Below are positions 28,434 to 56,218 of a stretch of DNA of 64,000 bases, in pieces. The notes below the pieces were generated by a model. That model had not been told where the DNA came from. It ran no database searches and saw nothing but the letters and a program-made list of their open reading frames with translations. This stretch comes from Terriglobia bacterium. GTDB taxonomy: Bacteria > Acidobacteriota > Terriglobia > 2-12-FULL-54-10. How positions within the stretch are numbered: the stretch's first letter is position 1; each line of letters begins with the position of its first letter. The DNA is taken from assembly GCA_963666975.2 (NCBI GenBank), contig CAXVYR010000004.1:1216001-1280000 (forward strand), given 5' to 3'. A program made the translations under genes and the position numbers.

Positions 28434-29177
28434 TTATTCCCGGAAATGGAACTGCAGCGTGATTCCCTTGATTACGATCTCATCGCCTTCCCGCAATTCG
28501 CGGACTGCGGTGAGCGGCTCCGAGTTAACCTTGGTGGCGCCGATTTTTTCTGACGGAGCAATGGTGTACTGGCCTTCCTTGCGATTGATGACGGCGGCGA
28601 CATTGGGAGCAAACCAGCCTTTCAGCTTCACCGAAGCCATCGCGTCTTTGCCGATCACACTCAGTTTACTGGTGAGGATGTATTCGCGCTGGTCGGTCTT
28701 GCCGCGGAGCACCGTGAGGCAGCCGATTTTTTCCTGGGTTTCAGTCGCGCCCCCCTCGGAAGCGATGGCGGTGGCCTTGGCCAGAAACTCCCGCCGGCTC
28801 TTGGTATCGAGCACGAATGTCTCTTCCATTTTCGACAACGGCTGCGTAGCTTCGGCGGTTTCTCCTTCCGGCGGCGGCGGCGGTTGCCCGCCCTCATCCT
28901 GAAAGATCAAGGTGTGTTTCCCGATCACAATCTGGTCGCCGTTCTTCAGCGGGCTGCGGCGGATTCGCTGGCTATTTAGGAAAGTGCCGTTCAGGCTGCT
29001 CATGTCTTCTACCGCATAATACCCCTGCTCCAATACGACCCTGGCATGGCGCCCGGACACGGCGAGGTTGTCGATGACTATGTCGTTGCCGGGGGTGCGA
29101 CCGATGCTGATAGCAGCCTTCTGGAGAGAAATTTCTTTCAGAACTGAGGCCTCATACTTTAGGATCAATTTGGCCAT
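28434..29177 (-). CDS. FHA-domain protein (N-terminal FHA plus degenerate second FHA)
   Basis: IGRTPGND, VSGRHA, SSLNGTFLN; start overlaps the PP2C gene end. Confidence 0.9.
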   Translation of the reverse strand: MAKLILKYEASVLKEISLQKAAISIGRTPGNDIVIDNLAVSGRHARVVLEQGYYAVEDMSSLNGTFLNSQRIRRSPLKNGDQIVIGKHTLIFQDEGGQPPPPPEGETAEATQPLSKMEETFVLDTKSRREFLAKATAIASEGGATETQEKIGCLTVLRGKTDQREYILTSKLSVIGKDAMASVKLKGWFAPNVAAVINRKEGQYTIAPSEKIGATKVNSEPLTAVRELREGDEIVIKGITLQFHFRE

Positions 29178-29995
29178 GCCCGATTTCCTCCGAACAGAGA
29201 TCTTAGCAATCTCCTCCACCCCCTTCGGGGGGGAGGCACATTCAGGCGGATAACGATTACGGTCACATTATCCTCCCCTCCGTTGTCGTTGGCAATCTCT
29301 ACCAGACGGTCGGAGGCCCGTTGTGCTGTTTCAGTGTCGGCCAGGATTTGCGCGATAGACGGATCGGAAACCATGCGGGTCAGGCCGTCGGAGCAGAGCA
29401 AAATCTGGTCTCCTTCCTTCATCCACAGTTCATCCATATCCACATTGACGTCAGGCTCTGCGCCCAGCGCCCGGATAATGACGTTCGCCAGCTCCGATTG
29501 CTCCGCTTCCTCCAGGCTGATCAAGCCCTTGCGAACCTGCTCCATGACCAGGGAGTGGTCCTGCGTCAGCTGCTGGAGCTCCCCGCTGCGCAACAGATAA
29601 ATCCGGCTGTCGCCCACATGGGAGATACTGAGAATATTGCCCGAAAGCTGCGCCGCCACCACGGTGGACCCCATGCCGCTGGTGGCGAGTTGCCGCCCGG
29701 CGGCATCATAAATTTCCCGGTTGGAAAGCCGAATGCCGCTGGCCAGCCGGTTTGTCTGCTGGGAAAATTCCGGTCTGTACTCGCCCACCATTTCCAGGGC
29801 GGGATTGCTTGCCGCCTCCCTCATGTGTCGCACTATGAGGTCTGCTCCCATCTGACTGGCCACTTCTCCGGCGGCTTGGCCGCCCATTCCGTCGCAAAGA
29901 ACAAACAACTGCAGGGACTCGTCCACCGCAAAGGCGTCTTCATTGTTTTCCCGGACCATTCCCCGGTCCGTTTTCGCTCCCACTGCAACCCGCAA
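29165..29995 (-). CDS. PP2C-family Ser/Thr phosphatase (Stp1/PrpC type)
   Basis: RENNED, CDGMGG, HVGDSR, LLCSDGL, GGEDN. Confidence 0.93.
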   Translation of the reverse strand: MRVAVGAKTDRGMVRENNEDAFAVDESLQLFVLCDGMGGQAAGEVASQMGADLIVRHMREAASNPALEMVGEYRPEFSQQTNRLASGIRLSNREIYDAAGRQLATSGMGSTVVAAQLSGNILSISHVGDSRIYLLRSGELQQLTQDHSLVMEQVRKGLISLEEAEQSELANVIIRALGAEPDVNVDMDELWMKEGDQILLCSDGLTRMVSDPSIAQILADTETAQRASDRLVEIANDNGGEDNVTVIVIRLNVPPPRRGWRRLLRSLFGGNRAWPN

Positions 29996-30566
29996 AACAG
30001 CCTCCGGTAAACGATAAATCCGAGCACCCCCGCCTTCCGGCAGGCTTCCGGCGCAGAATTCACCGCTAATTCACTTCCGTTTCGATACCGCCTTCCGGCG
30101 TCTTGGTTCACTCCCTGTTAGATGGCTGGCGGCACTCCGAAAAGGACTCGCAAGATAGCCTCGGCTTTGTCGGGCCAAATAGGCTGTTCCGATGGGGTTT
30201 TGATCCAGTAGGAACCAACCTGTAATATATCGACTCCCGTTAGCGATCCCTTCCCCCGCTTCTCTGCTCGCCCCACACATGGGAAAAATCCTTATTACCC
30301 CTGAGCTATGAAGCAGTTGAGCGGATTCTACCGTACCCGCACAACCCCGTCAACAAGCTCCCCCCTTTTGTGCAAGGAACCCGGAGTTATCTTTTTGTGT
30401 CACATTGTGTCACACGCTTCCCCTAGTTTTTGGACTTGGGAGAAAACTTTTCGGCAAGCGGGCGCCAAGAGGAAAAGCTCGTTCGGCACCGGCAATGTGC
30501 ACGGCGGGAGCGGCAGGGTGCTCATCCCGGTGAAAAAGGTCCTCGCGCTGCTGTCTGCTCTGGCGG

Positions 30567-31025
30567 TCACGGTTGGAGCGCCGCCAGCACTTCCTGAACG
30601 TGGCCCTCGACATGCACCTTTGGAAATATCTTCTGGACCTTCCCGGAAGCGTCAATTAGGAATGTGGTGCGCTCCACGCCGAGAACCTTTTTCCCGTGCA
30701 TGTTTTTTTCCTTCAGCACGCCGTATTCCTTGGCCACTTTCCGGTCCACATCGCACAACAGCGGAAAAGGCAGGGAGTATTTCTGCTTGAACTGGTCTTG
30801 CAGCAGCGGAGTGTCGGGACTCACGCCAACCACGGCGGCTCCCAGCTTTTGAAAATCAGCGATTGCATCACGGAACCCGGATGCCTCGGCGGTTCACCCC
30901 GGAGTATCGGCCATGGGGTAAAAGAAAAGGACCAGAGGATGTCCCTGGTAGTCGGTGAGGTTTACCGTGGTGTTTTGGTCGTTCGTCAGTTGAAAGCCTG
31001 GTGCTGGTTGTCCTGCTTCGAGCAT
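30567..31025 (-). CDS. bcp: Peroxiredoxin BCP/PrxQ, probable selenoprotein (UGA at codon 44)
   Basis: MLEAGQPAPGFQL...FYPMADTPG*TAEASGFRD...VVGVSPD...RTTFLID; the single in-frame TGA (30894-96) sits at the peroxidatic Cys position. Confidence 0.85.
30863..30893 (-). promoter_or_regulatory. Putative bacterial SECIS hairpin
   Basis: mRNA UGA-ACCGCCGAG-GCAUC-CGG-GUU-CCG-U-GAUGC: stem with a bulged U and a G-containing apical loop starting 9 nt after UGA. Confidence 0.65.
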
Positions 31026-31053
31026 AGTTTCCTCGCAATATTCAAGTGTTCGG

Positions 31054-31108
31054 TGTTGGGTGTTGGGTGGTAAATGTTAGATGGTGGATATTAGATGTTA
31101 GGTGGAAA
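31054..31108. repeat. Degenerate 7-bp tandem repeat (TGTTRGR-like, about 8 units)
   Basis: tgttggg tgttggg tggtaaa tgttaga tggtgga tattaga tgttagg. Confidence 0.6.
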
Positions 31109-31197
31109 TATCGTCTTGCAATCGAAAGCCGCCGATTGCAGATCTCTCCCGGCCTCCTTCCCGGCAATGGATCAGCCGGCAAAGGCATCCGGATACT

Positions 31198-32727
31198 TTA
31201 AGCTCCTCCGAGTTCTTCCTTTAACAGCTCGTTGACCTTCTGGGGATTGGCCTGACCTTTGGTCTCCTTCATGACCTGGCCCACGAAATAGCCGATCAGC
31301 GACGTCTTCCCGGATTTGTATTGCGCCAACTGCTTCGGGTTGGCGGCGATCACGTTGCGGATTGTGTCGCGAATCTGATCGGAATCGGTAATCTGACTGA
31401 GTCCCATCCTGCCGACAATAGCCTTCGCGCTCTCCGAGGTGCTCAACATTGTCTCAAAGACGCTCTTGGCCATCTTGCCGGAGAGGGTCTTGTCTTGTAT
31501 GAGCACCAAAAGCCCGGTCAGCGCCTCCGGCGAAACGGGCGACTCGCCGATCTGCTTTCCTGCCGCCTTCAGAGCGCCCAGCAAATCACCCATCACCCAG
31601 TTTGCCGCCATCTTCGGTTCGGCGCCCGATGCCGTCACTTTTTCATAGTAGCCGGCCAGAGCTTGGGAAGCGGTCAGCACCTCGGCGTCATACTCACGCA
31701 AGCCGTACTGGCTGACAAATCGGCGCCGCTTCGTATCGGGGAGCTCCGGCAGCGTCTGCCGAATCTCTTCCTGCCAAGCATCGCTGACCATCAACGGAAG
31801 CAGGTCGGGCTCCGGGAAATAGCGGTAATCATGGGCGTACTCTTTGCTGCGCATGCTGACGGTCTTCTGCTGTTCGAAGTTCCAGTGGCGCGTCTCCTGG
31901 GCGACCTTTTCTCCGCGCTCCAGCAACTGCGTCTGCCGCGCGATCTCATAGTCCAGCGCCTTTTGCAGGTAGCGGAAGGAGTTCAGGTTCTTGACCTCGG
32001 CCTTGACGCCTAACTCTTGCTGGCCGCGCGGGCGCACGCTGACGTTGGCGTCGCAGCGCAGGCTGCCTTCCTCCATATTGCAATCGGAGACGTCGAGGTA
32101 CTCCAGTATCTGCTTCAGCCGCGTCACATAATCGTAGGCCTCGGCCGAGCTGCGCATGTCGGGCTCGCTGACGATCTCGGCCAGCGGCGTGCCGCTGCGG
32201 TTCAGGTCCACGTAGCTTTTGTCCTTCGAGTCAGGGAAGCCGTCGTGGATGCTCTTCCCGGCGTCCTCTTCCATATGCAGGCGTGTGATGCCGATTCGCT
32301 TTGTACCCTTTTCCTGAGGGCCGCCCTCAGCCTGTCCATCTCCGGAACGAATCTCAATCCAGCCGTGCTCGGCGAGCGGCTGGTCGAACTGGGAAATTTG
32401 ATAGCCCTTGGGGAGGTCGGGATAAAAATAATTCTTGCGGGCGAAGCGGGAAAACGGGTTTACGCGGCAGTTTAGCGCCAGCGCCGCTTTGACGGCCATC
32501 GCCACCGCTTCCCGGTTCAGCACCGGAAGCGCGCCGGGCAGTCCCAAGCACACCGGACAGGAGTTGGTGTTGGGCGGATCGCCGAAACGGGTGGAGCAGC
32601 CGCAGAAAATCTTGGAGCGCGTCCGCAGTTGGACGTGAACTTCGAGGCCGATTACCGGCTCGTATTTCCCCTTCAGGGCCTCCGGAATTTCCAGCGCGTC
32701 CCTAGTTAGTTCCATAGTTAGTTCCAT
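31198..32727 (-). CDS. gatB: Asp/Glu-tRNA amidotransferase subunit B
   Basis: IGLEVHVQL, RKNYFYPDLPKGYQISQ, HMEEDAGK, YRYFPEPDL. Confidence 0.98.
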   Translation of the reverse strand: MELTMELTRDALEIPEALKGKYEPVIGLEVHVQLRTRSKIFCGCSTRFGDPPNTNSCPVCLGLPGALPVLNREAVAMAVKAALALNCRVNPFSRFARKNYFYPDLPKGYQISQFDQPLAEHGWIEIRSGDGQAEGGPQEKGTKRIGITRLHMEEDAGKSIHDGFPDSKDKSYVDLNRSGTPLAEIVSEPDMRSSAEAYDYVTRLKQILEYLDVSDCNMEEGSLRCDANVSVRPRGQQELGVKAEVKNLNSFRYLQKALDYEIARQTQLLERGEKVAQETRHWNFEQQKTVSMRSKEYAHDYRYFPEPDLLPLMVSDAWQEEIRQTLPELPDTKRRRFVSQYGLREYDAEVLTASQALAGYYEKVTASGAEPKMAANWVMGDLLGALKAAGKQIGESPVSPEALTGLLVLIQDKTLSGKMAKSVFETMLSTSESAKAIVGRMGLSQITDSDQIRDTIRNVIAANPKQLAQYKSGKTSLIGYFVGQVMKETKGQANPQKVNELLKEELGGA

Positions 32728-51274: not shown

Positions 51275-52249
51275 TCAAAAGTGCTGAAAGCCCCGCACCG
51301 GCAGAGGGTGTGCTTTTTCTCCCCGCACCAGCAATAGTTTGCGGCCGGAGATAATATGCCCGACGAGGGTAAGCTGCACGCCGCCTATGCTGCCGGGAAG
51401 CCGGCGCGACCGCCGTGCGGGAACTGTGAACAGTAGCTCTAAATCCTCGCCGCCGTGCAGGGCGCAATCCATCGATGTCCGGGAAGAGCGGGGAAGCGAT
51501 GCTTCTATAATGCTCGCACCCACCCGGCTTTCTTCGCACAAGCGCGCCAAGTCGATTGAGAGGCCATCACTCATGTCGATCATGGCGGAGGGCAGCTTTC
51601 GCTCGCGCAGGTATTGTCCGGCGCGCAGACGCGGCTGAGGGTAAAAGAAAGCTTGCAGAAACTCCTTCCGAACCGGCGATTTTTTTCCTTGCAGGGCGCG
51701 CAAGCCGCTGGCCGCCATCCCGAGTTTTCCGGTCACCCAGATTTCATCTCCTGGGCGGGCGCCGCTGCGCAGGATGGCGCGGTGGCGCGGCGTCTCCCCC
51801 ATCACCATGATGTCGGCGACAACGCCGCTTGCGGAAGCCCCGGTATCTCCGCCGGCCAGGATCACCTTCGCCGCTGCCGCGAGGCGAAAAAAGCCGCGCC
51901 AAAAACCGTCCACCCAGCCTGAGGGCAATCGCCGAGGTAGCCCCAAGGAGAGAAAGGCATACCGGGGCACGCCCCCCATGGCTGCAATGTCGCTGAGCCC
52001 GCGGGCCAGCACCTTGTAGCCCACCGATTCCGCCTCCTGCCATTGCCGCCGAAAGTGCACGCCTTCCAGAAACAGGTCGGTGGTAATCAGGAGGTCCTTC
52101 TGCCGGGAGGCGGCGATAACGGCGCAATCCTCCCCGATGCCACGGCGCAGCGCGGAGGATTTCCCTAGGCGGGCGGCGTGTTGCGCTGCCCGTCGCCGCA
52201 GAAGGTTTACGAATTGTCTTTCGCTGCTAGGTTCTCTTTTCACTGGCAA
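51275..52249 (-). CDS. thiL: Thiamine-monophosphate kinase
   Basis: GIGEDCA, EGVHF, LSDIAAMGG, GGDT, IDMSDGL, GGEDLELLFT. Confidence 0.95.
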   Translation of the reverse strand: MPVKREPSSERQFVNLLRRRAAQHAARLGKSSALRRGIGEDCAVIAASRQKDLLITTDLFLEGVHFRRQWQEAESVGYKVLARGLSDIAAMGGVPRYAFLSLGLPRRLPSGWVDGFWRGFFRLAAAAKVILAGGDTGASASGVVADIMVMGETPRHRAILRSGARPGDEIWVTGKLGMAASGLRALQGKKSPVRKEFLQAFFYPQPRLRAGQYLRERKLPSAMIDMSDGLSIDLARLCEESRVGASIIEASLPRSSRTSMDCALHGGEDLELLFTVPARRSRRLPGSIGGVQLTLVGHIISGRKLLLVRGEKAHPLPVRGFQHF

Positions 52250-54185: not shown

Positions 54186-54274
54186 GGACAGGTGGCCGAG
54201 TGGTTAATGGCAGCAGACTGTAAATCTGCCGCTCCTTGCGAGCTACGGAGGTTCGAATCCTCCCCTGTCCACCA
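54186..54274 (+). tRNA. tRNA-Tyr(GUA)
   Basis: Anticodon arm GCAGA-CTGTAAA-TCTGC; long variable arm; CCA end. Confidence 0.97.
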
Positions 54275-56143: not shown

Positions 56144-56218
56144 AGGGGTGTAGGTTTAACGGCAGACCGCCGGTCTCCAAAACCGGATGTGGGGGTTCGA
56201 ATCCCTCCACCCCTGCCA
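56144..56218 (+). tRNA. tRNA-Trp(CCA)
   Basis: Anticodon arm CCGGT-CTCCAAA-ACCGG; CCA end; canonical position before secE. Confidence 0.95.

Follow-up and report, generated by a model that had tools for sequence, protein, structure and literature searches.

Cys-type enzymes of the BCP/PrxQ subfamily of peroxiredoxins carry a peroxidatic Cys, and most BCPs use a resolving Cys at position +5 relative to it; the PrxQ of Xanthomonas has its resolving Cys in helix α3 (C84). 1-Cys BCPs exist as well, and the resolving Cys is therefore optional for BCP membership. In the PrxU of Eubacterium acidaminophilum, a peroxidatic selenocysteine (Sec) was reportedly shown experimentally by Sohling et al. in 2001. 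Other Sec-peroxiredoxins are catalogued under COG1225, which we take to be the BCP group. In the tables of the catalogues, Sec-Prx appears as COG1225, a family that with 43 sequences ranks second in abundance in the Sargasso Sea (PMC1088965, Tables 1 and 3); with 12 genes and 5 Cys-to-Sec events, next to three selenoprotein families in Acidobacteria (PMC1794560, Tables 1 and 2); and as the selenoprotein family 'Prx (TxxU)', entered in a table as PF00578/TxxU (PMC13188914). The bacterial SECIS is described as a stem-loop located right after the UGA, whose small loop at the apex includes a G (PMC1088965). Within the portions of the selenoprotein catalogue literature drawn on here, PrxU is the only biochemically studied Sec-Prx that is cited.

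Measured against these systems, the gene described here is ordinary in kind: Sec forms of the BCP family are already known, and the first-pass annotation of its sequence overstated the novelty of a group that, going by the catalogue tables, has long been on record under COG1225. The gene lies in a stretch of 64,000 nucleotides, the window, to whose positions all coordinates refer unless a genome position is given. With the Prx (TxxU) family, as far as it is tabulated, the gene has in common the Pfam family, a T-x-x-U motif with a peroxidatic Sec, a SECIS after the UGA and a G in the small loop; it differs in its source, a lineage whose GatB is nearest to Acidobacteriota and which is found in runs labelled as sponge metagenome. 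PrxU is likewise a bacterial peroxiredoxin with a peroxidatic Sec, but it belongs to a different subfamily, the window protein scoring 54.2 bits with the PrxU model NF040737, far below the cut-off of 270. The UxxC Prx-like oxidoreductase selenoproteins are in the same Pfam clan, but have a thioredoxin-like UxxC motif instead of PxxxTxxU. Among Cys-type enzymes of solved structure, the Xanthomonas campestris PrxQ (5iiz, 3gkk; the entry titles name C48S and C84S mutants) and the Burkholderia ambifaria enzyme (5enu) are 41–43% identical to the window protein in the fold-search alignment, superimpose with TM-scores of 0.89–0.94 and share the PxxxTxxC loop and the active-site Arg; in place of their peroxidatic Cys the window protein has a predicted Sec, together with Ser at +5 and its only Cys at position 91.

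The reading frame runs on the minus strand from an ATG at 31025, and its sole interruption is an in-frame TGA at codon 44 (30896..30894), in the context YPMADTPG-TGA-TAEASGFRD; position and description agree with the 152-codon BCP frame of the first-pass annotation. The features of the locus are the following:

30567..31025, minus strand: BCP/PrxQ coding sequence of 152 sense codons, a complete frame with its stop TGA at 30569..30567
31030..31034, minus strand: Shine-Dalgarno-like GAGGA, 4 nt 5' of the ATG, identified by reading the sequence
30894..30896, minus strand: UGA codon 44, predicted Sec, the peroxidatic residue of P37-x3-T41-x2-U44 by alignment to the TPGCT Cys
30865..30884, minus strand: bSECIS-like hairpin GCAUCCGG-GUU-CCG-U-GAUGC, with 8 bp, one bulged U and the apical loop GUU
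30879..30881, minus strand: codon 49 (TCC, Ser) at the canonical +5 position of the resolving Cys, its three bases pairing in the stem with two bases of the Asp codon (A and G) and one of the Arg codon (G)
30753..30755, minus strand: codon 91 (TGC), the protein's only Cys, at the end of strand β5 (PLLCD), a candidate alternative resolving residue
30669..30671, minus strand: codon 119 (CGC), the conserved peroxiredoxin active-site Arg, invariant in the 69-sequence alignment A3

Because the catalytic Sec is encoded by UGA, gene callers cut the gene in two. The table 11 list of open reading frames contains one piece of 43 aa (30894..31025) and one of 88 aa (30567..30833); only the latter, the C-terminal half, had been noticed at first, but the former is listed too. 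The two pieces are also stored separately in public protein collections, where a 30-member cluster has formed around the 88-aa piece, with a length of 88 aa in 15/15 of the members listed. Taking all the evidence below together, we are confident that the locus is a genuine, intact selenoprotein gene that has been mis-split in public calls. Immediately upstream lies a gene for a 509-aa GatB-like protein (Asp/Glu-tRNA amidotransferase subunit B; 31198-32727, minus strand), a name given from its appearance and its relatives, and a 276-aa frame downstream (29165-29995, minus strand) resembles, by eye, a PP2C-type Ser/Thr phosphatase with a DGMGG motif. A consensus scan for promoters and terminators gave two weak matches 3' of the gene, one promoter-like (30353..30325) and one resembling a terminator (30468..30451, some 100 nt past the stop), and ARAGORN found no tRNA beside the gene between 29000 and 33000.

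For family searches, C was put for U at the TGA codon. The protein matched PF00578 (AhpC/TSA) with 140.1 bits (cut-off 26, E = 4.7e-41), Redoxin was matched as well, and the cut-off of NF006960, the thioredoxin-dependent thiol peroxidase equivalog of NCBIfam, was exceeded by a narrow margin (142.5 bits against 140). Solved BCP/PrxQ structures were retrieved with E-values from 3e-36 (PDB 5enu) to 1e-27, placing the TGA opposite the Cys of TPGCT, which bears out the initial alignment of this codon to the PxxxTPGC-T peroxidatic motif. An AlphaFold2 model built from 69 sequences has a mean pLDDT of 95.6 and superimposes in Foldseek on 9a4d_B and 5enu with TM-scores of 0.93–0.96 and rmsd values of 0.9–1.2; P37, T41, residue 44 and R119 are invariant columns of the underlying alignment. 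A U-x4-S active site had been read from the sequence, correctly: position +5 is Ser (TCC, 30881..30879), whereas the majority of homologues carry the resolving Cys at this site, and a resolving Cys is found neither there, in helix α2, nor in α3. This does not exclude the protein from the BCP/PrxQ subfamily; it groups it with those BCPs in which the canonical resolving Cys is missing. Its single Cys, Cys91, ends strand 89-91 in the model and is followed by the invariant D92. It is very probable that the gene product is a BCP/PrxQ peroxidase of thioredoxin fold with selenocysteine as its peroxidatic residue, with the actual insertion of selenium as an inference.

The TGA is not peculiar to this genome. 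Matches to the gene were found in 38 of 41 related genomes searched (G000, which carries the window, included) and in 170 genomes of an unbiased phylum-wide sample of 401, in which Sec forms made up 9/150 of the matches listed. For comparison we assembled 51 homologues with 34–88% identity, a TGA-enriched sample built from 30 loci of the related-genome search and 20 regions picked for showing TGA; in this sample the peroxidatic column reads TGA in 35/51 and TGC or TGT in 16/51, so that both members of the Cys/TGA pairs that the first-pass annotation proposed to look for occur at exactly this column. In two homologues (L036 and L048) the flagged TGA sits elsewhere and the peroxidatic column is Cys. 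Of the 13 other genomes in the taxonomic family to which the window belongs, 12 gave a match; the best hit carries TGA in nine of them and Cys in two, and one is a contig-edge fragment that leaves the column uncovered. One of the two with Cys (G011, locus L026) has tandem BCP genes at 1501-1953 and 1994-2443, 40 nt apart, the first with a peroxidatic Cys, Lys at +5 and Cys91, the second with TGA, Leu at +5 and Ala91, which makes them a natural pair of Cys and Sec paralogues. On a tree of the 51 homologues obtained by a quick method, 7 Sec/Cys changes are needed, of which well-supported branches force only 2.

A gene that table 11 cuts at codon 44 and that public calls render as two pieces could be taken for a BCP pseudogene with a nonsense mutation, making only a 43-residue stub. 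Such a stub would leave the remainder free to decay, as the first-pass annotation had recognized, but no decay is seen: for codons 45-150, dN/dS is 0.06-0.16 in 10/10 pairwise comparisons among five orthologues, equal to or below the value for the 43 codons before the TGA, so the downstream part must be translated and under selection. A TGA in the same column of 35/51 homologues from many genera also speaks against a pseudogene, as does the fact that the genome yields no second BCP-type match at E <= 1e-20 and hence no redundant copy. Together with the preserved hairpin and the Sec machinery described below, these observations make a pseudogene hardly credible.

As TGA is one base away from TGC and TGT, an error of sequencing or assembly at 30894-96 had to be considered too, with one of these as the true codon. 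Across 30450-31150, TGA included, contigs assembled from the data of three further studies agree fully with the window; the comparison covered four runs. Over 30775-31037, no difference is seen in a 263-nt contig of a metatranscriptome library either, a match that attests presence, not transcription, and may derive from DNA. With independent assemblies carrying the same TGA, and with TGA also in the orthologues of 9/12 own-family genomes that gave a match, the error reading is refuted at the level of assemblies, and we regard it as the remotest of the alternatives. The 30450-31150 stretch was also found, in part, in runs labelled sponge metagenome, and the host organism may be sponge-associated; a search for sponge, Acidobacteria and selenoprotein in a limited literature collection returned nothing specific.

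Directly after the TGA, the hairpin noted at the outset is indeed present, spanning +9 to +28 and thus beginning 9 nt past the UGA, with its loop beginning 17 nt past it and with an outer 3-bp extension (30888..30860). Folded alone (26 nt), it reaches -10.2 kcal/mol (z = -2.83), and 2/200 shuffles were as stable; in its 61-nt context the total energy is unremarkable (z = +0.73; 151/200 shuffles as stable). Since the 61-nt fold is no better than shuffles, the single-sequence fold is weak evidence. Rfam gave no match in 30500-31100 at E <= 10, a result that is little informative for a bacterial SECIS, since to our knowledge that database has no generic model for this element.

The comparative test proved decisive. 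For the Sec forms it was based on 32 segments in 31 distinct rows, leaving out L062-L064 as a divergent subgroup. Over the eight pairs, 71.4% of the cells are paired and 20 cells are altered on both sides; the resulting covariation score of 0.207 was reached by 0/500 shuffles and lies above every slid register. When the same structure was imposed on 16 segments of Cys forms, 51.6% of the cells were paired, with 3 cells altered on both sides and a score of 0.048, reached by 216/500 shuffles. The signal comes from synonymous positions. The third bases of the Ala (+4) and Asp (+9) codons pair with each other in the stem, and in the 26 Sec-form rows with GCN/GAY they do so as GCG/GAC (13 rows), GCA/GAU (8) and GCG/GAU (1), with 4 rows mismatched, whereas in the Cys forms these bases pair in 2/10, and GCC, the genome's commonest Ala codon, predominates. 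The loop-closing pair covaries as well in the Sec forms (GC 16, AU 7). Folding energies averaged -11.7 for Sec (n=16) and -9.6 for Cys forms (n=15; one-sided Mann-Whitney p = 0.015); because the homologues are related, this value and the shuffle counts overstate independence and are not to be read as probabilities. The stem is not uniform among Sec forms: pairs 16-29 and 17-28 are unpaired in 17/31 rows, and distant Sec forms, e.g. L040, L044, L053, L041, L054, L055 and L057-L061, fall outside its register. On this comparison of sequences, the hairpin is more than chance and is kept through synonymous codon choice in TGA forms only. A covariation that preserves a hairpin directly after the TGA is also not what one would expect of a pseudogene.

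Whether the organism can decode UGA as Sec was read from its genome, an assembly of 4 contigs totalling 4.23 Mb with a completeness of 98.9%. All four components that the first-pass annotation had suggested searching for are present: selA (466 bits in a profile search), selB (a winged-helix domain in a 654-aa frame), selD (349.5 bits; G000:C4:1360322-1361257, plus strand, outside the window) and one tRNA-Sec (anticodon tca in ARAGORN; RF01852, 72.8 bits). In the window itself, the SelD model TIGR00476 weakly matches a 324-aa frame (51482-52204, minus strand), with 56.9 bits, far under the cut-off of 125; this is probably another member of the AIR-synthase-related superfamily and not a second SelD. 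Two sub-threshold matches to the tRNA-Sec model (54186-54270 and 56144-56214, both plus strand, 34-35 bits) are probably ordinary tRNA genes. In the postulated Sec-using acidobacterium, the use of Sec is thus borne out, while 'acidobacterium' is consistent with the data but not proven: the best matches of the GatB neighbour are Acidobacteriota/Terriglobia MAGs with 58-64% identity, a similarity that fits this name but gives no placement.

The selD gene itself contains one in-frame TGA (context AG-U-ASKL), followed 20 nt downstream by a 7-bp hairpin with a GGU loop. Moreover, in-frame TGAs occur in 4/13 PF00578 matches of the genome, namely in the BCP gene and in three Prx-like UxxC genes, each with one TGA and all outside the window:

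G000:C4:418868-419260, minus strand: Prx-like UxxC gene
G000:C4:1108689-1109087, plus strand: Prx-like UxxC gene
G000:C4:863703-864074, minus strand: Prx-like UxxC gene

These AhpC/TSA-family genes have the W-U-x-x-C motifs WUPYC, WUGAC and WUPYC and a hairpin 10-15 nt 3' of each TGA, and are probably Prx-like thiol:disulfide oxidoreductase selenoproteins. At the four UGA sites other than that of the BCP gene, 16-21 nt separate the UGA from the start of the hairpin loop, which reads GUG, GGA, AGUU or GGU, with G in first position in 3/4 and in second position in the fourth.

Near-cognate suppression of UGA does happen in bacteria, and, as selenium insertion into the BCP product rests on inference, the codon might instead be read mainly by a near-cognate tRNA for Trp or Cys, or through a reassigned code. 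The BCP gene's own terminator, however, is TGA, and therefore TGA is not generally reassigned. The UGA moreover occupies the column of the catalytic Cys, at which a Trp would abolish activity, and a covarying hairpin at SECIS distance next to an intact selABCD set favours SelB-dependent decoding. We thus consider decoding by anything other than Sec-tRNA very unlikely, if somewhat less so than the pseudogene or the error. The full Sec machinery also argues against a pseudogene, and with the TGA/Cys pairs, the selection downstream and the independent assemblies it supports the original view that the gene is recoded, not broken.

On the preferred reading of a recoded selenoprotein gene, SelB-GTP carrying Sec-tRNA(Sec) would bind the hairpin 9 nt past UGA-44, with its GUU loop and one bulge, and bring Sec to the UGA in place of release factor 2, whereupon translation would run through 108 further codons to the true TGA stop. 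In the folded protein, P37, T41 and R119 would hold in place the selenolate of U44, which would attack a hydroperoxide, the presumed substrate, and be converted to the selenenic acid. As +5 is Ser instead of a resolving Cys, recycling must go another way. Either the thiol of thioredoxin or glutaredoxin, the probable reductants, would attack directly in a '1-Sec' mechanism, or a selenenylsulfide would form with Cys91, if this residue has a resolving role.

The exchange at +5 is not confined to the window. In the 51 homologues, again a TGA-enriched sample, the +5 Cys is absent in 31/35 Sec forms and kept in 15/16 Cys forms. It is replaced by S (16), N (4), K (3), R (2), I (2) or, once each, G, H, L and Q, and the Ser codon is UCC in 11/14, compared to 28.9% UCC among Ser codons genome-wide. 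UCC is the ideal +5 codon because the pairing partners of columns 16-18 are two bases of GAY (Asp), A and G, and one of CGN (Arg), its G. In the four Sec forms with a retained +5 Cys, the stem register is shifted. Cys91 follows a complementary pattern: in the clade with the window's family it is present in 9/10 sequences without the +5 Cys and in 0/3 with it, and among database Cys forms in 5/7 without the +5 Cys compared to 9/61 with it. From this distribution, Cys91 may be a candidate resolving residue that replaces the +5 Cys in the window's bacterial family. Elsewhere, 18 Sec forms have neither Cys, so that recycling by an external thiol, in a 1-Sec mechanism, must be workable too.

These patterns suggest a scenario in which the gain of Sec forces a new recycling chemistry. 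The stem would have to pair with the invariant Phe-Arg-Asp codons (UUC CGN GAY), and a Cys codon (UGY) at +5 would place a G-G mismatch in mid-stem. A SECIS lying over helix α2 would thus displace the canonical +5 Cys because the RNA constraint favours UCC (Ser) in the stem; recycling would then follow the 1-Sec route, or Cys91 at the end of strand β5 would be recruited as the new resolving residue and form the Se-S bond. The codon choice of the stem and the takeover by Cys91 are two readings that are compatible with each other. We put the scenario forward tentatively and consider it more doubtful than probable: a test of independent pairs for Sec against loss of the +5 Cys found only 2 pairs on well-supported branches, and with only 2 independent contrasts, neither multiple origins of Sec nor a link between Sec and the loss is statistically supported. 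The only possibly new aspect is how the SECIS, the lost resolving Cys and Cys91 are connected, though such a connection is only suggested by the comparison of homologues; the limited collection of literature that we searched held no text on the resolving-Cys status of Sec-BCPs.

Because public predictions hold fragments of the split gene, functional profiles lack the principal BCP-type peroxidase of an entire lineage. With UGA codons in selD, in three UxxC Prx-like genes and in the BCP gene, the organism appears to depend on selenium for its redox defence, a dependence that bears on its ecology and, for an organism whose DNA turns up in runs labelled sponge metagenome, on the choice of cultivation media. 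For the family, the data set provides a clean natural case of an RNA element within a coding region that is paired through synonymous codons, and this coding-region SECIS may also have pushed out a residue of the catalytic cycle, the +5 Cys.
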